The notes beneath the pieces were generated by a model. It did no database searches. It saw only the letters and a list, made by a program, of their open reading frames with translations, and was not told where the DNA came from. A DNA stretch of 20,000 nucleotides from an uncultured virus (IMG/VR IMGVR_UViG_3300025128_000022) (taxonomy: Duplodnaviria > Heunggongvirae > Uroviricota > Caudoviricetes), in IMG/VR virus record IMGVR_UViG_3300025128_000022; one strand, 5' to 3'. Below, in pieces: positions 2,301 through 20,000 of this stretch. The first letter of the stretch is position 1, and each line of letters opens with the position of its first letter. The translations under genes and the position numbers were made by a program.

Positions 2301-2329
2301 TGAACACTTTGAAATCTTGTTCAGGATTT
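2301..2329 (-). ncRNA. H-type pseudoknot motif, copy A
   Basis: AAAUC-CUGAACAA-GAUUU-CAAAG-UGUUCA; loop UGAACA pairs with the downstream UGUUCA. Confidence 0.7.
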
Positions 2330-2332
2330 TAG

Positions 2333-2451
2333 AAAGCAGACGAGGAATCGAACCTCTATATTAATAACCTAACGTCTTGTGTCAAATTGATAAGGGAGTT
2401 ATGAGTCTCCTTATCTAAAACCACTTCCGAGCACCTTGCTATCATCTGCTT
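2333..2451 (-). ncRNA. tRNA-like RNA (about 118 nt) with an expanded interior
   Basis: Acceptor-like stem AAGCAGA/UCUGCUU; T-arm GAGG-UUCGAUU-CCUC; D-like AGC-AAGGU-GCU; internal hairpin with loop ACUCAUAA; no encoded CCA. Confidence 0.6.
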
Positions 2452-2459
2452 AACATTTG

Positions 2460-2491
2460 CAATAATACGAATTAATAAATTAATAAACAAA
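2460..2491 (-). promoter_or_regulatory. Bacteroidetes-type sigma70 promoter (-33/-7)
   Basis: TTTG-N20-TATTATTG (one mismatch to TAnnTTTG), 8 nt upstream of the tRNA-like RNA. Confidence 0.65.
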
Positions 2492-2509
2492 TTTTAGACG
2501 AACTTTTTT

Positions 2510-3223
2510 TTATTGCTCCGGTTTATAATCCGGATTTGGAGCGTTGTCAGTCGTCAAAACTTGTAGCATAATGGCATCCACAAATTGCTGTAAGATGTGT
2601 CCATACTTCTCATCAAAGCTATGGTCTTCTCTCCAATTATTTAGCCACCTTTTAAATTCTCGTAGCATAATTGTATTGGTCATAAATCTATCCATCCAAT
2701 TAAGCATATCTTGATAGTAACGAGTTACTATATACTCCTCGTGAATGGTGCAGTTGCCACCACAATAGGAGCAGTCTTCAGCTATCTCCTCAATCTCGCC
2801 ATCGTCATCTTCCTCTTCGTAATACTCCCAACCACTACCACCACACTCACAACAATCCTGAAATACTTCCTCGATGACATTGCAATTGCCATTATTATAA
2901 TAGTCGTAGTAGAATCTACTAGCAATACGAATCAGCTCTCCATTAATGGTTTCGGCTTCAGCAGATTTTGGTACTAGTTTTTTATAAAGCTCATCATACT
3001 CTTTTTGATAAGCACCCTCATTGTTCCAATAGGTTTTTCCTAAAGGTGTTGATTTGCCGTGATGTTCAGCTGTCTTTTCCATCCATTTGCACCAATCGGC
3101 TAAAGTTTGTCGAGCATCAATTTTGCTCATACCGAATCTTTTGATTAGGTAGGGTGTCGCACCGAACATATTCGTCTCGCCGGACATCTGCAATTCGCAG
3201 AGATAATTAAAATGTGTGTTCAT
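2510..3223 (-). CDS. Multi-domain phage protein with an inserted DnaJ-type zinc finger, 237 aa
   Basis: CECGGSG and CSYCGGNC motifs flank an acidic loop; N-terminal SGETNMFGATPYL module; AACATTATG start. Confidence 0.85.
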   Translation of the reverse strand: MNTHFNYLCELQMSGETNMFGATPYLIKRFGMSKIDARQTLADWCKWMEKTAEHHGKSTPLGKTYWNNEGAYQKEYDELYKKLVPKSAEAETINGELIRIASRFYYDYYNNGNCNVIEEVFQDCCECGGSGWEYYEEEDDDGEIEEIAEDCSYCGGNCTIHEEYIVTRYYQDMLNWMDRFMTNTIMLREFKRWLNNWREDHSFDEKYGHILQQFVDAIMLQVLTTDNAPNPDYKPEQ

Positions 3224-3248
3224 AATGTTTACATTTTTATTTAATAAA

Positions 3249-3299
3249 TCCGTTTCATCCTTTCGGAATCATCAGGTGTGATACACATCACACTACGGA
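3249..3299 (-). ncRNA. Type III hammerhead ribozyme 1 (GUA site, cleavage between 3294 and 3293)
   Basis: UCCGUA^GUGUGA-UGUGUA-UCACAC-CUGAUGA-UUCC-GAAA-GGAU-GAAACGGA. Confidence 0.85.
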
Positions 3300-3322
3300 G
3301 GGGTAATGAACCCCCCTGTGTA

Positions 3323-3565
3323 TTAACTCACTCTCTCATATTCGTCAAGCCACTCATTAATGTCGTCTTCGTCTAACCAATAGTTAGTAAATTCGTTACC
3401 TTCTAAAATCAATTCTTTGGCTATGTCCATCATCCCATATTTATCATAGAATAATTCTGAATCAGGGTCTTCAATTTCTGTCTGACCTATTTCGTGTAGC
3501 CAACCTATTTCATAACCATCATTGGTTGGTAGGTAGTCAAACACATAGTGTTTAAGTTTTTTCAT
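3323..3565 (-). CDS. Highly acidic hypothetical protein, 80 aa
   Basis: ORF track; AACATTATG start; D/E-rich. Confidence 0.85.
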   Translation of the reverse strand: MKKLKHYVFDYLPTNDGYEIGWLHEIGQTEIEDPDSELFYDKYGMMDIAKELILEGNEFTNYWLDEDDINEWLDEYERVS

Positions 3566-3589
3566 AATGTTATTATTATATTATTAAAT

Positions 3590-3638
3590 CTGTTTCATCT
3601 TTTTAGAATCATCAGCGATAGCACACACTATCGAACAG
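3590..3638 (-). ncRNA. Type III hammerhead ribozyme 2 (GUU site, cleavage between 3634 and 3633)
   Basis: CUGUU^CGAUAG-UGUGUG-CUAUCG-CUGAUGA-UUCU-AAAA-AGAU-GAAACAG. Confidence 0.85.
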
Positions 3639-3665
3639 GAGCAGTTTTAAATCGTACTCAGGATT
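3639..3665 (-). ncRNA. H-type pseudoknot motif, copy B, abutting hammerhead 2
   Basis: AAUC-CUGAGUAC-GAUU-UAAAAC-UGCUC; loop GAGUA pairs with UGCUC. Confidence 0.7.
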
Positions 3666-3677
3666 GTCTGACTGCGT

Positions 3678-4085
3678 CTACTCTATGCAGTATCCGTCAT
3701 CATCGACCTTAATCTCGTGGCTGTCAGAGTGTCCGTTGACTAGCTCTGCGAGGGTTTCATTGTCGATATCATCAATCATATCATCGGTTAAAATATCGGA
3801 TGAGATAGTGGTATTAAAAAGCATACCATCCTCAAACATACTTTGAACCTCTGACATCATCTCATATTCATCGGTGAACAGCTCATCGCAAGGGTAATAA
3901 GCTCCCTTATCTGCGTCTCTTCTGTCGGTGATTATGTAGATGTCAAATCCATCTTTTGAGGTTTCCAAAAGGATGTGAATCTCTGCTCCTGATTCATAAG
4001 GGGTTTCGATTACACTTCCAAATACATCTGTTAGGATGGACTCGATACCCATCTCTCTTAATTCAGTTATTGTTAATTTCTCCAT
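3678..4085 (-). CDS. Highly acidic hypothetical protein, 135 aa
   Basis: ORF track; strong D/E excess. Confidence 0.85.
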   Translation of the reverse strand: MEKLTITELREMGIESILTDVFGSVIETPYESGAEIHILLETSKDGFDIYIITDRRDADKGAYYPCDELFTDEYEMMSEVQSMFEDGMLFNTTISSDILTDDMIDDIDNETLAELVNGHSDSHEIKVDDDGYCIE

Positions 4086-4086
4086 T

Positions 4087-4320
4087 TTAGTTTTTGTTTA
4101 AGTTAGACATTCTTTCTTTGTGTTCTGCGTACAATAGGGACACTATAAGGAACGAACAAAATCCGTATAGACATACACAACCCAACCACACAATAACGCC
4201 GGTAAACGAGCCAATATCGGTTTTTAGGATGTGAATGAATAGACTCCCACATAAAGCTATTATCGGCAAACAAACTAATGCATAGATAATAGACTCTGAA
4301 TAAATTAAAACTTTTTTCAT
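4087..4320 (-). CDS. Small membrane protein with two predicted TM helices, 77 aa
   Basis: Two hydrophobic segments; AACATTATG start. Confidence 0.8.
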   Translation of the reverse strand: MKKVLIYSESIIYALVCLPIIALCGSLFIHILKTDIGSFTGVIVWLGCVCLYGFCSFLIVSLLYAEHKERMSNLNKN

Positions 4321-4346
4321 AATGTTATAAAGTTAAATTAATATTT

Positions 4347-4395
4347 CTGTTTCGTTCTTTTGAACTCATCAGGCAAGGCACACACCTTGCGACAG
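4347..4395 (-). ncRNA. Type III hammerhead ribozyme 3, fully canonical (GUC site, cleavage between 4391 and 4390)
   Basis: CUGUC^GCAAGG-UGUGUG-CCUUGC-CUGAUGA-GUUC-AAAA-GAAC-GAAACAG. Confidence 0.95.
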
Positions 4396-4418
4396 GGGAG
4401 CGGTCAGCTCCCTGTGGT

Positions 4419-4667
4419 CTACTTATCTTCAAGCGTTACGACTGCATCCGGCTTTGATTTTGTCAGAACCTTGTGCATCTTGTTGAAGGTGTTCAGTTTT
4501 GAAACTACTTTCATCAATGCTCTAAACTGATTGGTATTCAGGTCTAATTGCCCAAGCTCGATGGTCTTTAGTTGCGTAATCGTGTTGTCTAATTCATCAG
4601 CGTTGAACTCAACCTGTACCGGCTCACTATACTTGTAGCTGTTAAAATACTTGTCATTCGTTTTCAT
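4419..4667 (-). CDS. Hypothetical protein, 82 aa
   Basis: ORF track; AACATTATG start. Confidence 0.8.
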   Translation of the reverse strand: MKTNDKYFNSYKYSEPVQVEFNADELDNTITQLKTIELGQLDLNTNQFRALMKVVSKLNTFNKMHKVLTKSKPDAVVTLEDK

Positions 4668-4696
4668 AATGTTTGTTGTTTAAGTTAGTAATATTT

Positions 4697-4921
4697 TTAT
4701 CTTTCTTCGTACTCTTTAAAATCTATGCCAATAGATTCGCATAAAAATTTCTCTTCAAACCAAAAAAGGTCGTTTATTTCGCTCTCGGTTGGTGGCTTTT
4801 CGTGATATAAATCCTCAATCGCAAATTGAATTTCTTTTAATTCATTATAAGTAAATTCGTGTTGCTTTGCTCCGCTCCAAAATTTAAAGCTCGTTAAATC
4901 TAAATCTTTAGTGTAATACAT
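4697..4921 (-). CDS. Phage hypothetical protein, 74 aa (MYYTKDLDLTSFKFWSGAK...INDLFWFE); start revised from 4978
   Basis: AACATTATG at 4921; the ORF-track N-terminal extension lies inside hammerhead 4. Confidence 0.85.
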   Translation of the reverse strand: MYYTKDLDLTSFKFWSGAKQHEFTYNELKEIQFAIEDLYHEKPPTESEINDLFWFEEKFLCESIGIDFKEYEER

Positions 4922-4944
4922 AATGTTTGTTATTAAATTTATAA

Positions 4945-4993
4945 TCTGTTTCTGCTTTCGCTTCTTCAGGTAAGGCACACACCTTACGACAGA
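4945..4993 (-). ncRNA. Type III hammerhead ribozyme 4, short stem II variant (GUC site, cleavage between 4988 and 4987)
   Basis: UCUGUC^GUAAGG-UGUGUG-CCUUAC-CUGAAGA-AGC-GAAA-GCA-GAAACAGA. Confidence 0.82.
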
Positions 4994-5023
4994 GAACCTT
5001 TTTATCTCGACTTGTTCAGGTCG
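4994..5023 (-). ncRNA. H-type pseudoknot motif, copy C, abutting hammerhead 4
   Basis: CGAC-CUGAACAA-GUCG-AGAUAAAAAG-GUUC; loop GAAC pairs with GUUC. Confidence 0.7.
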
Positions 5024-5029
5024 GTTTGG

Positions 5030-5092
5030 TTATACTAAAACAATCTCAAACTCTTGAGAAATGTCTTGTATTGCTATATCATATGCATTCAT
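5030..5092 (-). CDS. Possible 20-aa micropeptide (MNAYDIAIQDISQEFEIVLV)
   Basis: Manual translation; AAATTATG start; stop 6 nt before pseudoknot C. Confidence 0.4.
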   Translation of the reverse strand: MNAYDIAIQDISQEFEIVLV

Positions 5093-5113: not shown

Positions 5114-5698
5114 TTAAATTCTTTCGATTAATTCTTCTTGCTCTTCGTACTCATAAAGACAATGATTTATAATCATATCATCACACTTGAAGAGCTTCGC
5201 ATCTGTGTAACCTCCTCTGACGTCAGCTCCGTTGTGTATCTGTAACAACAAGTAAGATTCGCCGTTAATCTCTAGCCATCCACCTTGAAGAGTTTGAGAG
5301 AGGTCACTCTCTGCGTTGTAGGTGTTGAAGGTTCTGCCCTCAACGACTTCGTTGCCCTCTTTTAAATCGTCCCACGCTTCGAGAGATACTCCCCACGCTT
5401 CAGAGTCGCCGTTCCAATCTGTTGCACCTGATTGAATTTCATTAAAGTTGTTGCAGATATAATCTAGCTCTAGAGCTGAATCTTCACCGGCTAAAAAATG
5501 GAAGACTGATACTTCTCTCTGTATCCAATCAGATGAATCTTTTTCTATGGTTTCAGGTTGGTCATTCTCGAAATCTGTCAGACTGCGTTTTTGGTTTCTC
5601 TGCCAATGTCTCCCGTCAGTCATACCGGAATCTAGCATGTGTTTACCTGTTGACTCTGTCAACATTTCGTAAATTAATTGTTTTAAATCTGTGTTCAT
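5114..5698 (-). CDS. Acidic phage protein, 194 aa, first gene of the leftward operon
   Basis: ORF track; motifs MLDSG..GRHWQRNQ, NTYN and QIHNGADVRGGYTD recalled from uncharacterised phage proteins. Confidence 0.88.
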   Translation of the reverse strand: MNTDLKQLIYEMLTESTGKHMLDSGMTDGRHWQRNQKRSLTDFENDQPETIEKDSSDWIQREVSVFHFLAGEDSALELDYICNNFNEIQSGATDWNGDSEAWGVSLEAWDDLKEGNEVVEGRTFNTYNAESDLSQTLQGGWLEINGESYLLLQIHNGADVRGGYTDAKLFKCDDMIINHCLYEYEEQEELIERI

Positions 5699-5739
5699 TT
5701 TAGTAAAATTTAAGTGCCTTTCGGCTGTTAATAATACAG

Positions 5740-5747
5740 CAAAGATA
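5740..5747 (-). promoter_or_regulatory. Bacteroidetes-type -7 box (TATCTTTG) for the leftward operon
   Basis: Exact TAnnTTTG 41 nt upstream of ATG 5698; GCC-GAAA-GGC hairpin in the leader (5716-5725); no clear -33 TTTG. Confidence 0.6.
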
Positions 5748-6193
5748 TAAACTTTTTTTTAATTCTCGTATAATTTTAGTTTTATTTTCGTTTAATTTTA
5801 TTTACTTTATGTTAATAACTATGTAAAGCGTTGATAATGAGCAAGTTATATGTTGATAATTCACGCAGATTTATTTAATCTTTTTTGATTGGGTTCGGTT
5901 GCTCTCTTTATTCTTTGTCTATCTGTTACAAATAATAAATAAATGGGGGAAGGTATGGAGGGAATCGAGGGGGTTGTGTGGTGTGGTATAAGGGAAGGAG
6001 GGGAGGAGGTCAACAGGAGGACAGGACACCGGACAAATTTTGTAAAAAATCCGAAAGAAAAAAACAAAATCAATAAGGGGGGTCAAAAATAAATTTGACT
6101 TTTTTTTTGCGGCACACAAACGCATAACGGGGGGGAGTCTAAACAGTACATATAACTAAATAAAATTTTTGTATCTTTACAAAAAAAATTATC

Positions 6194-6430
6194 ATGGGCA
6201 AACCTTATAAACAATTACAAAGAGATGGAAAGATTTCAAACTTTGTAGACGGTCTGTATATGCAGAACGGAAGAGAAAAGAATGCAAGACCGGATGGAAT
6301 GACAGGTATTGCTCAAGCTGCAATGTATAGACAGCAAATGAAAAAGCAATATAAAATAGATTGTATCGCTGATGGAATAGAGAGGGCTAAAATGAGAATG
6401 GATGGCGATAAAGATATATATGAGTTTTAG
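6194..6430 (+). CDS. Hypothetical phage protein, 78 aa
   Basis: ORF track; TATCTTTA box upstream at about 6172; terminator downstream. Confidence 0.8.
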   Translation: MGKPYKQLQRDGKISNFVDGLYMQNGREKNARPDGMTGIAQAAMYRQQMKKQYKIDCIADGIERAKMRMDGDKDIYEF

Positions 6431-6456
6431 TTGAAGATGAGTATGTGTGTTGATTG

Positions 6457-6487
6457 AAAGGGGGATTCTTAGGAGTCCCTTTTTTTT
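6457..6487 (+). terminator. Rho-independent terminator
   Basis: GGGAUUC-UUAG-GAGUCCC hairpin followed by a T8 run. Confidence 0.85.
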
Positions 6488-6506
6488 ATGTCGTTATTTA
6501 ACAAAG

Positions 6507-6590
6507 TTGTGTTGATTTTGTGTTGATTTTAAAATTGATAATTAATTATAAATCAATAGTTTATAAAATATAATGTTGAAATGTTGATTT
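6507..6590. repeat. Cluster of TGTTGAT-type repeats in an AT-rich spacer
   Basis: Exact tandem TTGTGTTGATT x2 (6507-6528), then ATGTTGAA and ATGTTGATTT; related copies near 5829, 5850 and 6446, inverted near 6551 and 6664. Confidence 0.55.
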
Positions 6591-6700
6591 GAAAAAGGAA
6601 CTGTAGTGAGAAAAAAACATATGCGTTAAATAGAAAAGAGAGAGAGAGTATAGTGAGCAATTAAAATCAGCATAACAGCATAAAGTATAAATAGTTTTTA

Positions 6701-6708
6701 TATCTTTG
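6701..6708 (+). promoter_or_regulatory. -7 box TATCTTTG upstream of groEL
   Basis: Exact TAnnTTTG 21 nt before the ATG. Confidence 0.6.
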
Positions 6709-6729
6709 CTTAAATTAAATACACTATAA

Positions 6730-8343
6730 ATGAATCCAATTAAAATGCCATCCGGCTTTAATCCAAAGGAATTATCTTTTGGAACAGAGGGGAGAAATAA
6801 ACTAATCTCCGGTATCACCCAAATCGCAAATGCAGTAAAGAGCACTCTAGGACCTAGAGGGAATACAGTATTGATAGAGTCTCAATATGTAACAGGAGGA
6901 TTAACTGTAACTAAAGACGGAGTAACTGTAGCGAAAGCCGTTGACTTATTAGACCCTGTAGAGAATCTAGCGGTGCGTATGATGAAACAAGCTGCAGACA
7001 ATACAGCATCCTCAGCCGGAGACGGAACAACAACAGCTATCGTATTGACAGAAGAGTTAGTAAAGCAAGGTAACGAGTTAATGGATGAAACCACAAATCG
7101 AGCTGAAGTTCTAAGAGAGATTGTGCGTGAAACCGACAACGTTATTGGAAATTTAAAAAAGGCATCTAAAAAGATTACGAGTAAAAGATTAAAAGATGTA
7201 GCTATTATCTCAGCTAATAATGATAAGACAATAGGTAAAGTAATAGCGGATACATATAAGAAAGTAGGAAAGAACGGAATCGTTACTGTAGAAAAGTCAG
7301 AGTCGAGTGAAACATATAGCGAGACGACTAATGGAATTAAAATAGATAGAGGATGGACTTCACCTTTATTCGTTAACAATCAAAAGAAAGATGAAAGTAT
7401 ATTAGAAAATGTGCATGTGCTTGTAAGCGATGCAGAGATTACTAATGTATTAGCGATTGAAGGAATATTAAAACCAATCATTAATGAACAAAAGAAATTA
7501 TTAATTATTGCACCTATGTCTGTTAATGTAGTAAACACTCTTGCAGCTAATGTTGTAAAGAATGGATTACAGCTTTGCGTAATAGGTCCTCCATCATTTG
7601 GATATAAACAACACGAGCTTATGCAAGATATAGCAGTTTCGGTTGGTGCTAAATACTTTTCAGAAAAAACAGGAGATGACTTATCCTTAATTACATTTGC
7701 TGATTTAGGTCATGCAGATAAATGTATAATAGGACAAGAGTCTTCTATATTAATAAAATCATCTACCGTACAAACTGATGTAAGTGAAAGAGTAAATCAA
7801 TTATGGGAAGCTCATAAGATTACAACAAAGAAAGAAGATAAAGAGTTTATACTATCACGCATTGCATCACTCAGCGGTGGTATTGGTGTAATATATGTAG
7901 GAGGGCAAACTGATATTGAGCAAAAAGAATTGTTCGATAGAGTAGATGATGCTGTATGTGCGGTGCGTTCTGCACTACAAGAAGGAATATTACCGGGAGG
8001 TGGAATAGCATTGTACGACATTGCAGCAGAACATAAACCTAATTCTGAAAAAAATTCCAAAAAAATTGCTGACGCAATTTTATATAATTCTCTCATTGCT
8101 CCATTACGTCAGATTTTAGAGAATGCAGGACTAGACCCTGAAGAACTATATTGTTGTAAAAAGGAACAAGGAAAAGGTTATGATGTTAAGAATGAAAAAT
8201 GGGGGAGCATGATTGATATGGGAATTATTGACCCAATGAAAGTAACTAAAAGTGCCTTACAAAATGCAGTTTCAGTTGCAGTAACAATTTTATCAACTAA
8301 CGCCATTATAACTATGGCGAGAACATATGAGGGTAAAAATTAA
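6730..8343 (+). CDS. groEL: Phage-encoded group I chaperonin GroEL (Cpn60), 537 aa
   Basis: TLGPRG, TKDGVTVAK, AGDGTTTA, EGILPGGG and GIIDP motifs; no C-terminal GGM tail. Confidence 0.97.
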   Translation: MNPIKMPSGFNPKELSFGTEGRNKLISGITQIANAVKSTLGPRGNTVLIESQYVTGGLTVTKDGVTVAKAVDLLDPVENLAVRMMKQAADNTASSAGDGTTTAIVLTEELVKQGNELMDETTNRAEVLREIVRETDNVIGNLKKASKKITSKRLKDVAIISANNDKTIGKVIADTYKKVGKNGIVTVEKSESSETYSETTNGIKIDRGWTSPLFVNNQKKDESILENVHVLVSDAEITNVLAIEGILKPIINEQKKLLIIAPMSVNVVNTLAANVVKNGLQLCVIGPPSFGYKQHELMQDIAVSVGAKYFSEKTGDDLSLITFADLGHADKCIIGQESSILIKSSTVQTDVSERVNQLWEAHKITTKKEDKEFILSRIASLSGGIGVIYVGGQTDIEQKELFDRVDDAVCAVRSALQEGILPGGGIALYDIAAEHKPNSEKNSKKIADAILYNSLIAPLRQILENAGLDPEELYCCKKEQGKGYDVKNEKWGSMIDMGIIDPMKVTKSALQNAVSVAVTILSTNAIITMARTYEGKN

Positions 8344-8357
8344 TTAAATTAAATATA

Positions 8358-8486
8358 ATGGTAATACACAATCAAATTTTTCACAGCTTTAGAGAAAATA
8401 AAATTAAAATTAAAAAAGCAATTGAGCTATTAGAAAAAAACGGCTACATAGTTTACAACAAGGATAAAGTATATGATAGCAATTAA
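8358..8486 (+). CDS. Small hypothetical protein, 42 aa (MVIHNQIFHSFRENKIKIKKAIELLEKNGYIV...)
   Basis: Manual translation; fills the groEL-groES gap. Confidence 0.6.
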   Translation: MVIHNQIFHSFRENKIKIKKAIELLEKNGYIVYNKDKVYDSN

Positions 8487-8730
8487 TAAGTATATAATAG
8501 TTGAAAATATAAAAGAAGAAATGAAAACGGAATCCGGCTTGTTATTATCTGAGCACGATGCCGAACAATTTCGTTATAGAAAAGCTAAAGTAGTTACTCC
8601 GGGTACGGAAGTGAAATCTATTAAAAGAGATGATATGATATATTACGACAAAAGAGCAGGATACCAAATGGTACTTGAAGGTTTAACTTGTTCAATTATT
8701 CGGGAGCAAGATGTCGTTGTTGTTTTATAA
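8473..8730 (+). CDS. groES: GroES-like co-chaperonin (Cpn10), 85 aa
   Basis: Mobile-loop KTESGLLL motif, C-terminal IIREQDVVVVL, size, and position next to groEL. Confidence 0.85.
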   Translation: MIAINKYIIVENIKEEMKTESGLLLSEHDAEQFRYRKAKVVTPGTEVKSIKRDDMIYYDKRAGYQMVLEGLTCSIIREQDVVVVL

Positions 8731-9657: not shown

Positions 9658-9938
9658 TGGCAATAAGAAAGACTACGAAGGGTAAAGGTGCAAATTATAG
9701 ACCTACAAAAAAAGGAGCAGGAATGACGAAGAAAGGAGTTGCCGCTTATCGTAAAGCAAATCCCGGTTCTAAATTAAAAACAGCTGTTACCGGTAAAGTA
9801 AAACCCGGAAGTAAAGCTTCTAAAAGAAGAAAGTCATATTGTGCTAGAAGTTTAGGGCAATTGAAACGAAGTAGTGCAAAAACTAGAAACAATCCTAACT
9901 CTAGAATAAGACAAGCTAGACGTAGGTGGAAGTGTTAA
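9657..9938 (+). CDS. Basic phage protein, 93 aa (RRKSYCARS...NSRIRQARRRWKC; possibly DUF6321-like)
   Basis: ORF track; motif recalled from memory, family not verified. Confidence 0.8.
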   Translation: MAIRKTTKGKGANYRPTKKGAGMTKKGVAAYRKANPGSKLKTAVTGKVKPGSKASKRRKSYCARSLGQLKRSSAKTRNNPNSRIRQARRRWKC

Positions 9939-9959
9939 ATACATAAAGAAAAATAATAG

Positions 9960-9967
9960 TATCTTTG
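9960..9967 (+). promoter_or_regulatory. -7 box TATCTTTG
   Basis: Exact TAnnTTTG 17 nt before ATG 9985. Confidence 0.55.
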
Positions 9968-9984
9968 TAAAATAAATTTTAAGC

Positions 9985-10143
9985 ATGGGAGCATTTGATA
10001 GAATGGTAAAAAAGCTGATGGCTCAAGGAAAGAGCAAAGAAGCAGCAAAAAAAATAGCGTATTCAATTGGTGTAAATAAGTACGGAAAAAAAGGTATGGC
10101 TCGTAAAGCCGCAGCCGGAAGACGTAATTCTCGAAACGCTTAA
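9985..10143 (+). CDS. Small basic protein, 52 aa (MGAFDRMVKKLMAQGKSKEAAKKIAYSIG...KYGKKGM)
   Basis: Manual translation. Confidence 0.75.
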   Translation: MGAFDRMVKKLMAQGKSKEAAKKIAYSIGVNKYGKKGMARKAAAGRRNSRNA

Positions 10144-10171
10144 TTAATAAATTAATATAAAAAATAAAAAA

Positions 10172-10369
10172 ATGGCACAAGGTTATAACGACAGGTTAGA
10201 CGAGTCTCTAGGCATGAAGCATAGAGGTAAGCACAAACAAAGCATGAAGGACAGAAGAGACGAAAGTAAAGCAATGTCTAAAAAAGATTATGGACACGCT
10301 TACGGTGGCGACCATCATATGAAGTATGAGGAGCACTTAGGTTCTAATTCTAAGAACTTCAAAAAGTAA
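10172..10369 (+). CDS. Small hypothetical protein, 65 aa (QGYNDRLDESLGM...RRDESKAM)
   Basis: ORF track; A-rich leader. Confidence 0.8.
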   Translation: MAQGYNDRLDESLGMKHRGKHKQSMKDRRDESKAMSKKDYGHAYGGDHHMKYEEHLGSNSKNFKK

Positions 10370-10377
10370 AAACAGGT

Positions 10378-10485
10378 ATGAAAAATATATGGTGTAAATT
10401 TCAATGTATATGGAATTGGCTATTAGACAAAATTTCATTTGAAGTTAAAAACTGTCCAAATAAACTTTGTACTTGTAAGAAATGA
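10378..10485 (+). CDS. Small Cys/Trp-rich protein, 35 aa (MKNIWCKFQCIWNWLL...CPNKLCTCKK)
   Basis: Manual translation; ATGA overlap with the next ORF. Confidence 0.6.
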   Translation: MKNIWCKFQCIWNWLLDKISFEVKNCPNKLCTCKK

Positions 10486-10646
10486 AAAAAAGTAGAGGAT
10501 TAGGAGATTCGATTGAGAAGGCGACTAAAGCTACCGGAATCAAACACTTAGTAGGTGCTACAGCTAAAGCTGTAGGAATTAAAGATTGCGGATGTAATAA
10601 TCGCAGAGATACTTTGAATAGACTTTTTCCATATAAGAAAAACTAA
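10482..10646 (+). CDS. Small protein, 54 aa (SRGLGDSIEK...GIK...DCGCNNRRDTLNRLFPY)
   Basis: Manual translation; GLGD...CGC motif recalled from phage proteins. Confidence 0.75.
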   Translation: MKKSRGLGDSIEKATKATGIKHLVGATAKAVGIKDCGCNNRRDTLNRLFPYKKN

Positions 10647-10671
10647 TATATAAACCCTTAAATAATTAAAA

Positions 10672-11385
10672 ATGGCAACAATACCAAGCGGTCAAAAATT
10701 CCATACTGTAGCAAGTACGGTAGACACAGAAAACAGAGGTTCGGCAGGTCTTAACTCCCAAAGAACAATTTTTACAATGCAAGATATCCAAGACACTATC
10801 ACAGTAGGTGGTGGAGTAGACGGTTCAGGAACAGCAAATTCGCTGTCTAGATGGCTCGACTCCAATACTTTACAAGATGCAGGTGTAACAGATGATGGTT
10901 CAAAAGTAGCAGTAGCTAGACCATTAGACGTAACAGGTGATGTGGTAGCATCAGGAAATCTTTTAGTAGGAGATAATACAGGAGAAAATCCTTTAGGTAT
11001 TAACTTACAACAAGATAAAGGAAACTTATCAATTGGATTATTAATTCACAATCAAAATACAGGAGCAGACGCAGATGCGAAAATTTCATTTGAAACTCAA
11101 TCAGCTGCAGATATTTCTATTGGAATTGATAGAGGAGATTCAAACAAATTTAAAATTTCAAGAAGTGGAAACTTAGGAGTTAATGATGAAATGTCTGTAG
11201 ACTCAAGTGGTGTGACAGCTAATACTGCAGTAACTTCAGCTACATTTAATGTATCTGCATTAGAAACTGCACCGGCTTCAGCTTCAGCTACAGGAGTAGC
11301 AGGAGACATTAGATTTGCAACTGATGCAATTTATGTTTGTACAGCTACAGATACTTGGAAAAAAGTAGCAATAGCAACATTCTAA
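10672..11385 (+). CDS. Putative virion/fibre-like protein, 237 aa
   Basis: Rich in G/S/T/D; C-terminal APASASATGVAGDIRFATDAIYVCTATDTWKKVAI module typical of phage fibre proteins. Confidence 0.75.
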   Translation: MATIPSGQKFHTVASTVDTENRGSAGLNSQRTIFTMQDIQDTITVGGGVDGSGTANSLSRWLDSNTLQDAGVTDDGSKVAVARPLDVTGDVVASGNLLVGDNTGENPLGINLQQDKGNLSIGLLIHNQNTGADADAKISFETQSAADISIGIDRGDSNKFKISRSGNLGVNDEMSVDSSGVTANTAVTSATFNVSALETAPASASATGVAGDIRFATDAIYVCTATDTWKKVAIATF

Positions 11386-11396
11386 AATTAAAGATT

Positions 11397-11555
11397 ATGC
11401 CAACAGTAGGTAAAAGGGTATTTCCATATAATGCAGTAGGTAGAGCTCAAGCGGATTCTTATGCAAGAATGACAAAGGGCAAGATTAAATATAATCCTAC
11501 CTACGGCATGGAAAATTCTACTAAGAGTAGTAAACCCAAAATGAAGAAATATTAA
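11397..11555 (+). CDS. Small basic protein, 52 aa (MPTVGKRVFPYNAVG...); start revised from 11337
   Basis: Non-overlapping in-frame ATG at 11397. Confidence 0.7.
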   Translation: MPTVGKRVFPYNAVGRAQADSYARMTKGKIKYNPTYGMENSTKSSKPKMKKY

Positions 11556-11572
11556 TAAATAAATAAATAGAT

Positions 11573-12430
11573 ATGTCGTACTTAAAAAATATGATTAGCG
11601 GAATGAATGCAATTGAGATTGTTCCTCACAATTCCATTTATATTCCTAACCCGGCTCTAATAATTACTCGAAGTTCTCAGACAAACACAGTTGCCGATAG
11701 TTTATATGATTCGAGTATCACAACGCAAATATGGAGCGGAGTAACAGATGGTGCGGCAACCGGAGAATTAATTGATTCTTCCGAGAATTTTGTTTTAAAT
11801 TCTACACAAGCACAAGCAGGAGGAACAGCCGGTGCGGGTAAGTTTATAAAAGATGGTAATATTGTATTAAATTCTACAGACACTACAGAACATATAGTGT
11901 CAGCAGTTAAAAGTCCTAATGCATCAAGTTCAGATGCCTTATTAGTAAATACAGGTGTCCCAACAGCAAAAACTTATACTGTTGTAGGAGAAGGGTATAA
12001 ATCAAAACTTGGAGTGAAAGTTGGTGATATTGTTGTGAATGATGCAACTAGCACCATGGCTTTAGTTACAGGAGTAACCGATGACCGAACTATTACTCTT
12101 GATGCAAATATTTTTACAGGAACAGGTGAAAAATACAGTATTTTTGGAGGTAATCCTCCAACATCAAAAGGTTCAGGACAGCCAAGTTATATTGGTGATG
12201 CAGAAGGTTGTTTAGTATATGTTGGAACAAGCACACAGTTTGTACAAGATATTACTGAATCAGGTGCAGGAACAAATGACCCTCGTCATGTAAACATTAA
12301 AGTTAAAACAGTTGGAGGAGAGAATGTAACATTTTATAATTTCCCTGTAGGTGAAATATTGCCTGTTCAGGTGGTTCAAGTATTTGCAACCCCTTCAGTT
12401 ACTGACGCAAAATTAATAGCAATTTGGTAA
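11573..12430 (+). CDS. Putative structural protein, 285 aa
   Basis: Beta-rich, T/G/S-rich; C-terminal LVYVG...G.ILPVQVVQV...IAIW. Confidence 0.75.
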   Translation: MSYLKNMISGMNAIEIVPHNSIYIPNPALIITRSSQTNTVADSLYDSSITTQIWSGVTDGAATGELIDSSENFVLNSTQAQAGGTAGAGKFIKDGNIVLNSTDTTEHIVSAVKSPNASSSDALLVNTGVPTAKTYTVVGEGYKSKLGVKVGDIVVNDATSTMALVTGVTDDRTITLDANIFTGTGEKYSIFGGNPPTSKGSGQPSYIGDAEGCLVYVGTSTQFVQDITESGAGTNDPRHVNIKVKTVGGENVTFYNFPVGEILPVQVVQVFATPSVTDAKLIAIW

Positions 12431-12440
12431 ATTAAATAAA

Positions 12441-12503
12441 ATGATATACACACAAACAAACACATGGTCTAATGATATAACGTTTATATACGTTATAAAA
12501 TAA
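12441..12503 (+). CDS. Possible 20-aa micropeptide (MIYTQTNTWSNDITFIYVIK)
   Basis: Manual translation; fills the gap; A-rich leader. Confidence 0.35.
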   Translation: MIYTQTNTWSNDITFIYVIK

Positions 12504-12515
12504 GAATGAAGGAGA

Positions 12516-12818
12516 ATGGCACAGAAGATTTCGGAAGATACTAATGTAACTTTAGATTTAAAGACTATTGGAATGATAGTTGGATTTACGATATCTCTTG
12601 TAACCATGTACTTTACGTTAAAAGCTGATATAGCAAACGCAGCGGAATTACCAAAACCTGAAGTAACTCAAGTTGAATTTTCATATAAAGACCAATTAAC
12701 TAGGACAGTAGTAGAAGGAGTACAATCCGATATGGCGACAATTAAAGAAGACGTTAAGGATATCAAATTACAACTAGACAAGATGGATGAGAGATTATAT
12801 GAAATTAGCAAGAAATGA
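12516..12818 (+). CDS. Membrane-anchored coiled-coil protein, 100 aa
   Basis: N-terminal TM segment (TIGMIVGFTISLVTMYF); C-terminal heptads. Confidence 0.8.
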   Translation: MAQKISEDTNVTLDLKTIGMIVGFTISLVTMYFTLKADIANAAELPKPEVTQVEFSYKDQLTRTVVEGVQSDMATIKEDVKDIKLQLDKMDERLYEISKK

Positions 12819-13150
12819 GGTTATGGACAATATTATTAATGCTGTTAACCTCTACCGTTCATGCACAGTACAAAGATGGAATTGTCGTAGTTCAATATAG
12901 TGCTGATTTTGTAAAAGCAGCCGAAGTAGATTTAGATGACTTAGAGGGTGCAGACCAATATAGATTTTATCTTACCGACCATCCTAAATTATTTTCCAAA
13001 GATAAAATAGTATATCTTCCCACAGTAGTTTTATACCACAATCGAAAAGAAATTGTCAGAGTAGAAAGTAATATATCGCTTACCCTACCTGAAAATACAT
13101 TAGAGACTATACAAAAACATATTAACGAAATTAAAAAAAGCAAGTTTTAA
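12815..13150 (+). CDS. Exported thioredoxin-like fold protein lacking CxxC, 111 aa
   Basis: Signal peptide ending VHA; VVVQYSADF and IVYLPTVVLYHNRKEIVR resemble the thioredoxin cis-Pro region; no Cys. Confidence 0.65.
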   Translation: MRLWTILLMLLTSTVHAQYKDGIVVVQYSADFVKAAEVDLDDLEGADQYRFYLTDHPKLFSKDKIVYLPTVVLYHNRKEIVRVESNISLTLPENTLETIQKHINEIKKSKF

Positions 13151-13151
13151 A

Positions 13152-14444
13152 ATGGATAGAAAACAAAAAACAGAAAAGTTTGCATTAAACGCTATATTAT
13201 ATTTGGTAATAATTTTTTTATTAGCAGCTTTTACATTTAATGCACAAGCTCAAGTAATTAAAGAGGTAGACTCGGTTACGGAAAAAAACTTAATTGAAGG
13301 TTTTGAGAAAAAAATAAACAAAGGAAAATTTTTTAAAAAAGTATATAATGACTTTTTAAAATATGGAACAATCTATATTGCAGGTAATGCAAATAATCCC
13401 TATCAAAAACAATCTATTGACTATGTTGTAAGAACTAATCCTAGCGGTAGTTTATACGATGTGCCAATAGTTGAAGACGCAACTGAATATCATGAATTTG
13501 ATTATCGATATGGATTTGGAATTAGACGTATTGCTAGATTTGATTATGAGAATAAAGAAAAAGCATATTATGATGGTACTGAAAAGAATGTAGCTTTGTC
13601 TTCTCCAACAGCCGCATTTGATGGATGGGAATACTTATTCCATTGGGAGAAAGAAAGGGAAAGAGGTGAGGTGTTTAATAATCACCGTTACTTTCTTAGG
13701 AATACAGGTAAGCATCACATTGTTAAGGTAGAGTCAAGAGAAGAAGGAAATGTTGGATTTAAATATAGTTCAGCCGAAGTAAGAGGTAGACTACCTATAG
13801 GAAAAAAGTTTAGTATATCAGCCGGAGTTATAGCAAGAACTCATGACCAAGCATTTGGATACAATCCTGTAGAAATTTGGTTAAACGAAACTGATGAAGA
13901 TGGATACGCATTAAACCCTTGGTACACCTTAGGTTTTGAATATGGTTATGATGATATTTATTATACCCAATCAGACCAATTAGGTAATGAAATTTCAGAT
14001 TGGTATTGGATAGATGAAGAAGGAACAATAGTAGCCCATACGGATTTAGAGTTTCGTGAGACAGTTTTTGCTGACTTGATGAACCGATATAATAGAGAGC
14101 AATGGGATATGTTAGATGCTTTTGCTGAAGTAGCTCCTGTTATCGGAGCAGATTGGTACAGTTACAATGATAAACTATGGGTTCATGCATATGCTAACTA
14201 TATCTTACCTTATCATAAATACTTTAAGGGAGATGAATCGTTCAGTTATTTAAATAGAAATAATTGGGGATTAGGCGGATTAAAAGAAGATTCTGAATTA
14301 GAACAATGGGAAGACTATCAATTTGGTTTGATTAGTGGATGGTACATTACTTCAAAATTGAGTATATTTGTAGAAGGAGAATATACTAAGTTTTGGGATA
14401 CTGAGATTTTTAAATCTACTATAGGACTAAATATAGAATTATGA
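13152..14444 (+). CDS. Exported aromatic-rich protein, probable outer-membrane beta-barrel, 430 aa
   Basis: Signal peptide ending AQA; alternating strands (KFSISAGV, KLSIFVEGEYTKFW, STIGLNIEL). Confidence 0.65.
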   Translation: MDRKQKTEKFALNAILYLVIIFLLAAFTFNAQAQVIKEVDSVTEKNLIEGFEKKINKGKFFKKVYNDFLKYGTIYIAGNANNPYQKQSIDYVVRTNPSGSLYDVPIVEDATEYHEFDYRYGFGIRRIARFDYENKEKAYYDGTEKNVALSSPTAAFDGWEYLFHWEKERERGEVFNNHRYFLRNTGKHHIVKVESREEGNVGFKYSSAEVRGRLPIGKKFSISAGVIARTHDQAFGYNPVEIWLNETDEDGYALNPWYTLGFEYGYDDIYYTQSDQLGNEISDWYWIDEEGTIVAHTDLEFRETVFADLMNRYNREQWDMLDAFAEVAPVIGADWYSYNDKLWVHAYANYILPYHKYFKGDESFSYLNRNNWGLGGLKEDSELEQWEDYQFGLISGWYITSKLSIFVEGEYTKFWDTEIFKSTIGLNIEL

Positions 14445-14899
14445 GAATAAGCAAACATATAACTTACGCAGAAGCAATACACTCAAACACAGCTAAAAGA
14501 AAAGGAATAGATAACACGCCAAATCCGACTCAAGTTGATACAATGAAATTAACGGCAGAAAAAGTTTTTGAACCGTTAAGAGAATGGGTTGGAGGACCTA
14601 TAAAAGTAAATTCATTTTTTAGGTCGATTCCTTTGAATGAAGCAATTGGCGGAGTAGCTTCCTCACAACATTGTAAAGGTCAAGCGATTGACCTCGATGA
14701 TGTTTATGGTCATAAAACAAACGCTGAAATGTATTATTGGATAAAAGAAAATTGTGACTTTGACCAATTAATTTGGGAGTTTGGTACGGATATGAATCCG
14801 AATTGGATTCATGTATCATACGTTTCAAAAGAAGAAAATAGAGGAAGATGTTTAAAGGCATATAAAGAGGAACGTAGAACTAAATATAAAGTGATATGA
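14441..14899 (+). CDS. Peptidase M15A-family endolysin, 152 aa
   Basis: INS..R-like VNSFFR..LN..IGG..SQHCKGQAID and WIHVSY zinc-binding motifs. Confidence 0.9.
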   Translation: MRISKHITYAEAIHSNTAKRKGIDNTPNPTQVDTMKLTAEKVFEPLREWVGGPIKVNSFFRSIPLNEAIGGVASSQHCKGQAIDLDDVYGHKTNAEMYYWIKENCDFDQLIWEFGTDMNPNWIHVSYVSKEENRGRCLKAYKEERRTKYKVI

Positions 14900-15309
14900 A
14901 AGAAATACTAGCAAAAATATTTGGAGGTGCAGCAGGGGAGGTAGGAGATAAACTATCAAATATAGTAGATAGATTTGTGAGAACTAAAGATGAGAAAGCA
15001 GAGTTTGAAAAAGAGATGACTGAAATACTCATTAATGCCGAAGCTGCTATGCAAAAAAATGTAACGGATAGATGGAAAGCAGATATGGCATCCGACAATA
15101 AATTATCTAAATCCGTAAGACCGTTAGTTTTAATTTTTGTTATTGTCTGCACAATGTTGCTAATTTTTATTGACTCAGGATTTATTAACTTTGCAGTTGA
15201 AGAGAAATGGTCGGATTTACTTCAGATGCTTCTAATTACAATTGTGGCAGCTTATTTCGGCGGAAGGTCTTATGAAAAAGGAAAAAAAATAAAGAATGGC
15301 AAAAATTGA
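14896..15309 (+). CDS. Holin, GTA 3TM-like, 137 aa
   Basis: RWKADM.SD..LSK.VRP, TM helices, YFGGRSYEK; next to the endolysin. Confidence 0.85.
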   Translation: MKEILAKIFGGAAGEVGDKLSNIVDRFVRTKDEKAEFEKEMTEILINAEAAMQKNVTDRWKADMASDNKLSKSVRPLVLIFVIVCTMLLIFIDSGFINFAVEEKWSDLLQMLLITIVAAYFGGRSYEKGKKIKNGKN

Positions 15310-16015
15310 AACATATCCCTTATCTACACCTGTAGTTCCTGCGGATAAATGGATTGGTACTGATGTAACAAATAATACAAAAAACTTTTCCGCTAATGCA
15401 GTAGCTATTTTTATGAACTCGTATAATAGGATTGAATCTCAATCTTTGAGATACAAGTATCAAGATATGGAAGCAGGTGATGTAAGACTAGCAGGGACAA
15501 TATCTTTTGCTTCTTTAAATACAGGTACAGTTCCATTAAGTTCCATAACAAGTTTTAAATTAAGCAAACAACAAATTAATAATGCGGTAGATGTAAGTTT
15601 ATATTATACTAACCCATTATTACAATCAACTGTTTTGGTGTCAAGGTGTAGTGACCCTTCTACATTTGCAATTTACGAATGGGATTCAGCCGTACAAGAC
15701 GGGGTTGAAACTAATTTTTGGGACATCGGTGTAACTTATGCCACAGGGTATGGGAGCTTAGTAGATGATAAAGATTATTTTATATCTTTGCTAACATATA
15801 AGTCTGACCCTGCGACAACCTACATTCACACACAAAGTGTAGCTTCAGCTACTTGGACAATCACACATAATTTAAATTCGTTTCCTTCAGTTACGGTAAC
15901 GGATTCAGCCAACACTCCATATAGTGTTGCACAGGGACAGATAGTATATAATAATTCAAATCAGCTGACTGTGTCATTTTCAGCTGCATTTGCAGGAAAA
16001 GCATTTTTAAATTAA
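15296..16015 (+). CDS. Virion structural protein, 239 aa
   Basis: C-terminal YIHTQSVASATWTITHNLNSFPSVTV module. Confidence 0.8.
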   Translation: MAKIETYPLSTPVVPADKWIGTDVTNNTKNFSANAVAIFMNSYNRIESQSLRYKYQDMEAGDVRLAGTISFASLNTGTVPLSSITSFKLSKQQINNAVDVSLYYTNPLLQSTVLVSRCSDPSTFAIYEWDSAVQDGVETNFWDIGVTYATGYGSLVDDKDYFISLLTYKSDPATTYIHTQSVASATWTITHNLNSFPSVTVTDSANTPYSVAQGQIVYNNSNQLTVSFSAAFAGKAFLN

Positions 16016-16030
16016 TAAAAGAGAGAAAAC

Positions 16031-18388: not shown

Positions 18389-18406
18389 TAATTAAATACA
18401 ACCTTT

Positions 18407-20000
18407 ATGGGAAATTTCTTAAGTGGAATAAATGTTACAGGTTCTGTATCTATTACAGGAGATGGTAGCAATGCTGCAACATTTACCGAAAGTGGAAGTG
18501 GAGATTTCACTATTGCTTCAATAGACGATTTAAGATTAGATTCAGGTGGAAATGATGTAGTATTAAGAGGAGCGAGTAGTTCTGAATTTGGGAGATTATC
18601 AAATAGTTCTCAAAATTTTATTATTAAAAATATAACTGCTGATAAAGATATTATTTTTCAAGCTGATGATGGAAGTGGTGGTACTACTACATATTTCAAA
18701 TTAGATGGTAGTTTAACTATACTAGAATTTTCTAAAAACTTATATTTGACAGATGATGTTCAACTAAGAATTGGTACAGGTAGTGATTTAAAAATATACC
18801 ATGATGCTACTAATAGTAATATAGTAAATGAAACAGGTAATTTATTAATTGAACAAAAAGCGGATGGTGGAGATATTATATTTTACAGCGATGATGGCTC
18901 AGGTAATGTTGCTCAATATTTTAGAGTTGATGGTGGTGAAGTTGAAACTAGATTTTTAAAATCAACACTACATTTTGATAGTGTAAAGGCAAAATTTGGT
19001 GATGGTGGTGATTTAGAAATATATCACGATGGTAGTAATAGTTATATAAAAGAAACAGGTACAGGTGTTCTATATATACAAGGTTCTGCAAATGTACAAA
19101 TAGAGGGTATAAATGGAGAAAATAAAGCAGTATTTAATGAAAATGGTTCTGTTCAACTTTTTTATAATAATGTACAAAAATTTCAAACTACAAGTACAGG
19201 GGTTAGTGTAACAGGAACACAAACCATAAGCACTATTGACCAAATAGGTAGTGATACTGACAAATTCTTAATGTCAGATAGTGGTGAAATAAAGTATGTA
19301 ACGGGAGCTAATTTAAGAAGTTATATCGGAGCAGGTACAGGTAGTGGTGATGTAGTCGCATCAGGCACACCTGTAGATAACCAAGTTGCTATTTGGACGG
19401 ATGCAACTACAGTTGAAGGAAATGCTAATATGACATTTAGTGGAACTGTTTTAACAGTTACGGGAAACACATCAACAGAATGGAATACTGCATACACAGA
19501 TAGATTTAAATGGAATGGGCAGTCCACAGGATTACTTGCAGCTGATGGAAGAACATCTTTGGGTGGAACTACAGTTGGTCAAGCGTTTTTTACGCTTACT
19601 AATCCTAGTGCGGTTACTTTTCCAAGAATGAATGCTGACAACTCAGTTAGCTCATTAAGTGCTTCAGATTTTAGAACAGCGATTGGTGCAGGTACTTCTT
19701 CAACTGCAGGTACTGTAACCTCGGTTGCATTTACTGAACAAACAGGAAATAAAGCAGGTATTACATTAGGAGGAAGTTCAAGTTGGACTACAAGCGGAAC
19801 ATTAAATATAGGACTTGATATTCAAGGTCAAACCGCATTAGGAGCAACAGCTGCCGGTGGAGATTACTTATTACTTTATGACACAAGTGGCTTAGCCAAT
19901 AAAAAAGTAAGTGTAACTAATTTAGTTGCCGCTGCTCCACAAGGGGATGTTACAGCTTCTTCAACAACTACTTTTACAAATAAAAGTGGTAATATATCAC
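18407..20000 (+). CDS. Tail fibre-like protein, 5' part only (MGNFLSGINVTGSVSITGDG...), runs off the window
   Basis: Manual translation: open frame from ATG 18407; repeated G.G.DL.IYHD.+NS.I modules. Confidence 0.85.
   Translation, partial: MGNFLSGINVTGSVSITGDGSNAATFTESGSGDFTIASIDDLRLDSGGNDVVLRGASSSEFGRLSNSSQNFIIKNITADKDIIFQADDGSGGTTTYFKLDGSLTILEFSKNLYLTDDVQLRIGTGSDLKIYHDATNSNIVNETGNLLIEQKADGGDIIFYSDDGSGNVAQYFRVDGGEVETRFLKSTLHFDSVKAKFGDGGDLEIYHDGSNSYIKETGTGVLYIQGSANVQIEGINGENKAVFNENGSVQLFYNNVQKFQTTSTGVSVTGTQTISTIDQIGSDTDKFLMSDSGEIKYVTGANLRSYIGAGTGSGDVVASGTPVDNQVAIWTDATTVEGNANMTFSGTVLTVTGNTSTEWNTAYTDRFKWNGQSTGLLAADGRTSLGGTTVGQAFFTLTNPSAVTFPRMNADNSVSSLSASDFRTAIGAGTSSTAGTVTSVAFTEQTGNKAGITLGGSSSWTTSGTLNIGLDIQGQTALGATAAGGDYLLLYDTSGLANKKVSVTNLVAAAPQGDVTASSTTTFTNKSGNIS

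Follow-up and report, generated by a model that had tools for sequence, protein, structure and literature searches.

The DNA described here is a stretch of 20,000 nucleotides (referred to as the window, at its full length) from an uncultured tailed virus, IMG/VR record IMGVR_UViG_3300025128_000022. The minus strand carries a run of small open reading frames (ORFs), in the order 5114-5698, 4697-4921, 4419-4667, 4087-4320, 3678-4085, 3323-3565, 2510-3223, 1717-2268 and onwards. This run is read leftward from a non-coding region at about 5700-6730, and on the other side of that region a GroEL-like gene and structural and tail genes are read rightward. Four hammerhead ribozyme motifs (HH1 to HH4) are located in spacers between the minus-strand ORFs, all of them on the coding strand. 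They form an array of four copies within 1.75 kb, dividing blocks of 2, 2, 1 and 1 genes. An earlier note on this DNA (the original prediction) had placed four minus-strand intergenic elements here, and they lie exactly where it put them.

4945-4993 (minus strand): HH4, with GUC, stem I GUAAGG/CCUUAC, CUGAAGA, a short stem II (A.A and 2 pairs, GAAA loop) and GAAAC
4347-4395 (minus strand): HH3, with GUC, stem I GCAAGG/CCUUGC, CUGAUGA, stem II GUUC/GAAC with an AAAA loop, and G10.1-C11.1
3590-3638 (minus strand): HH2, with GUU, stem I CGAUAG/CUAUCG, CUGAUGA, and stem II of U.U and 3 pairs with an AAAA loop
3249-3299 (minus strand): HH1, with GUA, stem I GUGUGA/UCACAC, CUGAUGA, and stem II of U.U and 3 pairs with a GAAA loop
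4697-4921 and 4419-4667; 4087-4320 and 3678-4085; 3323-3565; 2510-3223 (minus strand): the four blocks of hammerhead-punctuated genes, from the ORF list, with functions not assigned

The core nucleotides C3 U4 G5 A6 N7 G8 A9, G12 A13 A14, the A15.1-U16.1 pair, and a cleavage-site base (N17) other than G are present in 4/4 copies. N17 is A in HH1, U in HH2, and C in both HH3 and HH4. Loops close stems I and II and stem III is open, giving the type III topology. The GUH triplet, CUGAnGA, an RAAA loop II, GAAAC and stem III, which had been listed for each element, can be read in all four copies. The stem I sequences are also as given, and the proposed 6-bp stem with a UGUGUR loop needs one adjustment, as a U-R pair can close this loop to produce a 7-pair stem I with a GUGU tetraloop. 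At positions 10.1/11.1, G-C is found only in HH3, with U.U in HH1 and HH2 and A.A in HH4. The core pattern CTGANGAN{6,30}GAAAC has 4 matches in the 20 kb, compared to 0.23 expected, and a count of 4 is reached in 0/200 shuffles; each match is in a spacer and on the minus strand.

A search of the minus strand with the Rfam Hammerhead_3 model, proposed as a check in the original prediction, detects two of the copies below the cut-off and none at the gathering score. HH3 is matched by RF00008 with 37.7 bits (E 1.6e-5, 4344-4398) and HH1 with 28.7 bits (E 0.0059, 3247-3301). HH2 and HH4 are not listed by Rfam at E<=10, even with a search space of 1.5 kb. Since the gathering cut-off misses all four copies, members of this subfamily probably go widely without annotation in the genomes of marine phages.

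A covariance model (R1), for which 113 copies from other viral contigs and no sequence from the window were used, was run unfiltered over the window. The scores are 73.9 bits for HH3, 70.9 for HH1, 66.7 for HH2 and 54.0 for HH4, with E values from 1e-19 to 1e-13 (9.8e-14 for HH4). The next-best match in the window has 13.2 bits. As R1 matches only these sites, the window contains exactly four copies of a large family in which the hammerhead fold is selected for. At the level of sequence and covariation, the four elements are securely assigned to the hammerheads.

The wider family was collected from IMG/VR viral contigs with a pattern that fixed GU, the UGUGUR loop, CUGANGA, GAAAC and the lengths, leaving every helix position free. 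This pattern has about 18.5 specified bases, and the family counts rest on the matches listed, which cover at least 132 stretches; by our own rough estimate, a handful would be expected. Among the matches listed, stem I has 6/6 pairs in 113 of 114 distinct cores, though the pattern demanded no pairing. In an alignment of 113 distinct copies, all from outside the window (alignment A2), 677 of 678 stem I cells are paired (99.9%), and all six pairs change on both sides. The inner three pairs of stem II are formed in 100% of the cells, and the inner four pairs of stem III in approximately 100%. Overall, 92.2% of the cells are paired and 13 of the 16 pairs change on both sides. When the partners are slid by 1-3 columns, only 35-43% of the cells are paired, and 0/500 shuffles match the observed values. 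The core is invariant in all 113 copies. The claim that the window elements are type III hammerheads under structural selection is therefore well founded, with R1 scores of 54-74 bits and the three helices kept by compensatory changes in 113 relatives.

Loop II is NAAA in 112 of 116 copies; this loop was free in the pattern, whereas loop I was fixed by it. Its conservation is a hint of a possible tertiary contact between loops I and II, of the kind that allows fast cleavage at low Mg2+. A descriptor scan of 416 kb finds 137 distinct hammerheads, with 0 in the reversed control, and 15 of 106 contig groups have multi-copy arrays of 2-6 distinct copies. These array counts come from loci that mostly extend no more than 2.5 kb per side, about fifty of them much less. 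R1 likewise finds several copies in many loci, and the copies of one locus are all on one strand.

Positions 10.1/11.1 are occupied by G-C in 53 of the 113 copies of A2 and are unpaired in 60. The identity of N17 covaries with these positions (A2 columns 9, 35 and 46; N17 of the window copies is at 3294, 3634, 4391 and 4988). In 116 distinct contexts, including the window copies, A17 occurs with U.U in 46 of 54 cases and C17 with G-C in 46 of 50, and A.A is found only with U17 (5 of 12). The corresponding counts in A2 are 45 for A17 with U.U, 44 for C17 with G-C, and 5 for U17 with A.A. The mutual information between N17 and 10.1/11.1 is 0.613, just below that of the true helix pairs, and the next other value is 0.35. 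Among 50 independent pairs of nearest neighbours, N17 changed in 17, and 9 of these also had a change at 10.1/11.1, compared to 0 of the 33 in which N17 stayed the same (one-sided Fisher test, about 1e-5 by our own arithmetic). The link is not obligatory, as N17 changed alone in 8 of these 17 pairs. The coupling is possibly due to a contact near the A9/G10.1 metal site, or to selection for two speed classes. A search of an open-access library found no report of such a link, which does not prove that there is none.

The hammerhead is part of a larger conserved unit, in which the stop codon of the preceding gene is followed by a stable hairpin, then the hammerhead, an AU-rich leader of about 27 nt, and an ATG. 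The hairpins and leaders of the four units in the window are as follows.

5007-5024 (minus strand): hairpin upstream of HH4, CCGACCUGAACAAGUCGA on the RNA strand, found as an inverted repeat in the scan
4396-4412 (minus strand): G+C-rich hairpin adjoining stem III of HH3, GGGAGC-loop-GCUCCC, from the fold
3641-3675 (minus strand): weak, interrupted hairpin upstream of HH2, -6.8 kcal/mol
3300-3316 (minus strand): G+C-rich hairpin adjoining stem III of HH1 and partly able to compete with it, GGGGGG-loop-CCCCUC, from the fold
4919-4942 (minus strand): AU-rich leader and AACATTATG start of a 74-aa gene (4697-4921), with a phrog_5149 match to the product from the ATG at 4921
4318-4342 (minus strand): AU-rich leader and AACATTATG start of a 77-aa gene (4087-4320), read from the sequence
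3563-3587 (minus strand): AU-rich leader and AACATTATG start of an 80-aa gene (3323-3565), read from the sequence
3221-3246 (minus strand): AU-rich leader and AACATTATG start of a 237-aa gene (2510-3223), read from the sequence

The descriptor scan predicts the 5'-OH bases at 3293 (HH1), 3633 (HH2), 4390 (HH3) and 4987 (HH4). With the ATGs at 3223, 3565, 4320 and 4921, the cuts are located 70, 68, 70 and 66 nt before the start codons, in agreement with the original prediction. Its observation of AACATTATG starts downstream of the cuts is also correct, but the motif is not linked to the ribozyme. There are exactly 6 occurrences of AACATTATG in the window, all on the minus strand, and two of them are at starts without a hammerhead (2268 and 4667), which assigns the motif to the gene cluster instead.

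The distance to the start codon is a property of the whole family. An ATG-initiated ORF is found on the same strand within 250 nt in 116 of 121 distinct genomic contexts, with a median of 69 nt between the cut and the ATG (quartiles 67 and 75), and this distance is 60-79 nt in 102 of the 116. The gap between GAAAC and the ATG is about 27 nt (quartiles 25 and 32). An upstream stop together with a downstream start is found in 111 of the 121 contexts on the ribozyme strand, compared to 31 of 121 on the opposite strand. The distance from the cut to the ATG is similar for leaders with a Shine-Dalgarno-like sequence (64/112, median 70) and for those without one (48/112, median 67). Upstream of the ribozyme, the 43 nt next to it fold into a strong hairpin, with a median energy of -14.7 kcal/mol and a median z score of -3.84, and 71% of them are below a z score of -1.5. 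The 43 nt downstream are unstructured and AU-rich (median -1.95 kcal/mol, z score 0.11, GC content 0.24). In the window, the upstream stop codon is positioned 25-41 nt before the ribozyme, and this gap is mostly occupied by the hairpin.

The reading we favor, with a probability of roughly 0.68, is that the window has four active-type type III hammerheads in a leftward message of accessory genes, which would cut this message into mRNAs with defined leaders. The motifs, the selection on their structure, their position and their orientation are direct observations. We infer from them cleavage in vivo, co-transcription of the genes, and effects on mRNA stability and translation. Processing fits the locus because the genes are co-oriented, the distance to the start codon is fixed, and the scan finds no terminator-like site on the minus strand in the four hammerhead spacers (overall, the terminator scan is not above shuffles).

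Hammerhead RNA cleaves itself after N17 with no need for protein, and the reaction leaves a 5'-OH and a 2',3'-cyclic phosphate. The leftward minus-strand transcript would thus self-cleave at four sites, giving pieces of 2, 2, 1 and at least 1 genes. The upstream piece would end in the hairpin, 4-8 nucleotides and GUH, and carry a 2',3'-cyclic phosphate. In the downstream piece, the first base would bear the 5'-OH and belong to a stem I pair, and the compact ribozyme and an open leader of about 27 nt would come next, such that the ribozyme would resemble a cap at the 5' end, about 27 nt ahead of the AUG. Such ends should withstand 3' exonucleases as well as attack that depends on the 5' end, from what is generally known of bacterial mRNA decay. 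The ribosome-binding region of each cistron would be uncoupled from the sequence upstream, and every mRNA would have equal protected ends. A constant distance to the start codon is predicted if the unit insulates each cistron in this manner, and this distance is the main new support for such a role.

The idea of processing itself is not new, being a published hypothesis of 2011 applied here to a new phage. In the part of that paper available to us (Perreault et al. 2011, PMC3088659), multiple hammerheads are described as often bordering a single gene or a short block of genes in prophages, and it is proposed that long phage transcripts are processed into operon-length or single-gene mRNAs. Three prophage arrays are reported there to cleave in vitro, and one in E. 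coli. The arrays resemble that of the window in having several hammerheads of the same orientation between phage genes or short blocks, and the flanked genes vary. The same part of the paper describes G10.1-C11.1 as the most conserved pair after 15.1-16.1, U10.1-U11.1 as a natural variant and the best-tolerated mismatch, and short stems as natural variants also. A 2019 review (PMC6765202), as far as its text was available, repeats the processing idea and finds the roles of bacterial ribozymes largely elusive. The fixed start-codon distance, the accompanying hairpin, and the coupling of N17 with 10.1/11.1 were not found in the accessible part of PMC3088659 or in searches of an open-access library; the figures and supplementary alignments of the 2011 paper may hold members of the subfamily.

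The subfamily represented in the window is type III, with a stem I of 6-7 pairs, a GUGU-type loop I, and an NAAA loop II. It shares the core, the three-helix junction and the open stem III topology with RF00008. Compared to the RF00008 consensus, the window copies have a longer loop I, a shorter loop II and a shorter stem III. The RNase III sites in the early region of T7 are likewise intercistronic RNA structures, at which a long early message is divided into defined mRNAs whose ends are structured. Cleavage in T7 is by the host enzyme RNase III at long irregular hairpins, with 5'-phosphate and 3'-OH ends. Unlike T7, the RNA in the window would cut itself, to leave a 5'-OH and a 2',3'-cyclic phosphate. 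RiboJ is reportedly a synthetic type III hammerhead, derived from a plant satellite RNA and placed just before the ribosome-binding region, where it is said to keep the leader constant whatever lies upstream; the phage units would act on the same principle. It is an engineered ribozyme insulator, according to the accessible part of PMC6206723. In comparison, the phage units are natural, have an upstream hairpin, and are located between cistrons.

Several observations weigh against the processing reading. None of the four window copies (0/4) is found by RF00008 at the gathering score of 48.5 bits. Three of the four do not have G10.1-C11.1 (U.U in two and A.A in one), and an A.A at this position is not covered in the part of PMC3088659 available to us. 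Stem II of HH4 has only two pairs beyond the A.A, and stem III has only 4-5 pairs in the window copies. In isolation, the minimum-energy folds of HH2 and HH3 have the core paired with the 3' strand of stem III instead. In the Flavobacterium phage vB_FspP_elemoB_14-3B (NC_062741.1), the single copy has no upstream cistron to cut off, and the uncultured podovirus MW202828.1, the closest relative by GroEL, has no hammerhead of the family. Finally, none of the 22 listed runs with this DNA is on record as RNA.

The missing G10.1-C11.1 pair is not taken to exclude membership, because U.U has been published as a natural active variant. The minimum-energy structure in isolation is the hammerhead for HH1 and HH4, the centroid is the hammerhead for HH2, and the alternative fold of HH3 is nearly equal to the hammerhead in energy. 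The lack of a copy in MW202828.1 indicates that phages of this type can do without the element.

The hammerhead of vB_FspP_elemoB_14-3B is unannotated (19023-19081, 46.8 bits by R1). It is located in a divergent region, with a predicted 5'-OH base at 19072 and a distance of 62 nt from the cut to the ATG, before gp62, the first gene of a leftward cluster. This copy fits the definition of a 5' leader better than the separation of cistrons, and it is consistent with an alternative in which every gene or pair of genes would be served by a promoter of its own, in or ahead of the spacer, and the hammerhead would only trim a variable 5' end to leave all mRNAs with an equal structured 5'-OH leader. 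The conserved distance, being to the downstream start and not to the upstream gene, agrees with trimming as well. On the other hand, few signs of such promoters are found in the window. Sigma-70-like sites are no more common than in shuffles (30 compared to 27.9, chance level). The motif TANNTTTG, which we take to be the Bacteroidota -7 box, is found 37 times compared to 28 expected, a weakly informative excess, and is absent from the minus strand of all four hammerhead spacers. The nearest candidates are at 5740-5747 and 6084-6091, upstream of the whole cluster. The scarcity of promoter motifs in the spacers argues weakly for co-transcription. Moreover, the spacers in the window are short and mostly filled by the hairpin. 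Overall, leader trimming in place of cistron separation is considered unlikely.

A second alternative makes use of the coupling described above. Cleavage would be tuned or conditional, with fast copies (C17 with G-C) and slow copies (A17 or U17 with U.U or A.A). The message would be cut only in part, and the ratios of the gene products would depend on how stable the pieces are. The four window copies represent four different combinations of N17 and 10.1/11.1, the two change together throughout the family, and regulation of slower phage variants has been suggested by Perreault et al. 2011 (PMC3088659, in the part available). However, a ligand-binding or switch element is not visible, and the coupling may be purely structural in its cause. 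Tuned cleavage is improbable by our assessment, somewhat more so than leader trimming.

With cleavage at all four sites, the pieces between ribozymes would bear 5'-OH and 2',3'-cyclic phosphate ends. An RtcB-type ligase, or the hammerhead reaction run in reverse, could then join such pieces end to end as circular or spliced RNAs. If the 5' strand of stem III in one copy paired with the 3' strand in the copy before it, the hybrid stem would have 4 pairs in two of the three segments, equal to the native stems of HH2 and HH3. This compatibility is expected because stem III is conserved anyway, and the third segment has only 2 hybrid pairs. Not every segment length (597, 757 and 340 nt) is a multiple of three, and spliced or circular products of such arrays were sought and not found by Perreault et al. 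(in the accessible part of PMC3088659). We regard joining as very improbable.

The possibility of inert repeats or DNA-level recombination modules with no RNA function, to which the breaks at hammerhead sites in contigs of other strains and phages would be suited as mosaic boundaries, is close to refuted, because selection at the DNA level leaves unexplained the compensatory changes that keep three helices around an invariant core in 113 copies, and the strand and start distance are fixed as well.

Contigs from other marine runs stop matching the window, or switch to another sequence, at 3249-3299, 4372-4395 and 4992-4994. Read depth rises at the hammerhead sites, as copies from other phages map there. 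In one relative, the region 3469-4945 is swapped for 1627 other bases. These observations suggest that gene cassettes may be exchanged between phages at the hammerhead units. One strain that is nearly identical to the window (run X8) has 2 and 1 bases missing and two substitutions in the hairpin that precedes HH1 (3303-3318). None of the listed differences of this strain is inside the four hammerheads; 21 further differences fall outside the listing.

A broader interpretation is offered tentatively, and we would not expect it to hold in full. The unit may be a portable, host-independent expression boundary at one fixed distance, with the cut about 69 nt before the AUG, in Shine-Dalgarno and non-Shine-Dalgarno hosts. 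Accessory cassettes would then be self-sufficient at the RNA level, having both ends protected and the ribosome-binding site insulated, and would be swapped between phages at these units. The coupled switch between C17 with G10.1-C11.1 and A17 with U10.1.U11.1 would reflect an undescribed contact in the core or a fast/slow setting.

The window belongs to a tailed phage, as PHROG matches include the chaperonin GroEL (E 1.2e-131) and several virion and tail families. The GroEL-like chaperonin gene is at 6730-8343 (plus strand). An 85-aa ORF at 8473-8730 (plus strand), located 3' of it, might be the GroES partner, as annotated in MW202828.1 and NC_062741.1. The best relatives of the GroEL-like protein are in MW202828.1 (58% identity) and Flavobacterium phages (37-38%). 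Based on these relatives and on the starts without a Shine-Dalgarno sequence, the host is probably a member of the Flavobacteriia. The window DNA is present in marine metagenome runs.

The corresponding leftward cluster of MW202828.1 continues into replication genes, and it is therefore plausible that the hammerhead-punctuated cluster contains early or accessory genes. The term early operon, used in the original prediction, reflects the gene order only. The small minus-strand proteins flanked by hammerheads have no match in Pfam (curated cut-off) or PADLOC, and 4697-4921 is the only one of the six punctuated genes with a PHROG match (phrog_5149, of unknown function). The hairpin that precedes HH4 and the stop codon (5114) of the 194-aa gene flank a mini-ORF of 20 codons (5029-5091, minus strand) with a AAAATTATG start context, which may be either a very small gene or a chance occurrence.

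A megablast search of the window against 50,697 phage records gives a single match of 112 bases, and the 430-aa protein (13152-14444) has no match among phages by tblastn. The nearest record (G001) overlaps the window only at 9677-20000 and is thus uninformative on the ribozyme region. A blastn search of phages with one 57-nt window copy gives matches at chance level only (E about 1). The best of these, in Synechococcus phage S-CBP4, is ruled out as a hammerhead by R1.

The 240-nt spacer at 2269-2509 is the sole long spacer of the cluster without a hammerhead, and it has a tRNA-like end at 2333-2427 (minus strand). This stretch contains a 7-pair acceptor-like stem and GGUUCGAUUCC. Its Rfam score is 15.2 bits for tRNA-Sec (E 1.8), its fold is no better than shuffles (z score -0.79), and ARAGORN finds no tRNA or tmRNA in the window. 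An attachment site copying the end of a host tRNA was considered and rejected, as the T-arm/acceptor string has 0 exact matches as a 23-mer and 1 as a 19-mer in 185,579 genomes. The stretch might be a degenerate tRNA, or a processing signal of the RNase P/Z type that replaces the ribozyme. In the run X8 strain, this spacer has about 12 extra bases (2449-2456).

The window alone adds little to the question of what hammerheads do in phages. The regularities of the family, namely a start-codon distance that stays fixed irrespective of the type of ribosome-binding site, the upstream hairpin, and the arrays on one strand, make the idea of mRNA processing testable. For this purpose, vB_FspP_elemoB_14-3B on Flavobacterium sp. 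BAL314 is a cultured, tractable pair of phage and host with one copy of the element. The coupling of N17 with 10.1/11.1 may also merit the kinetic interest of ribozyme chemists.

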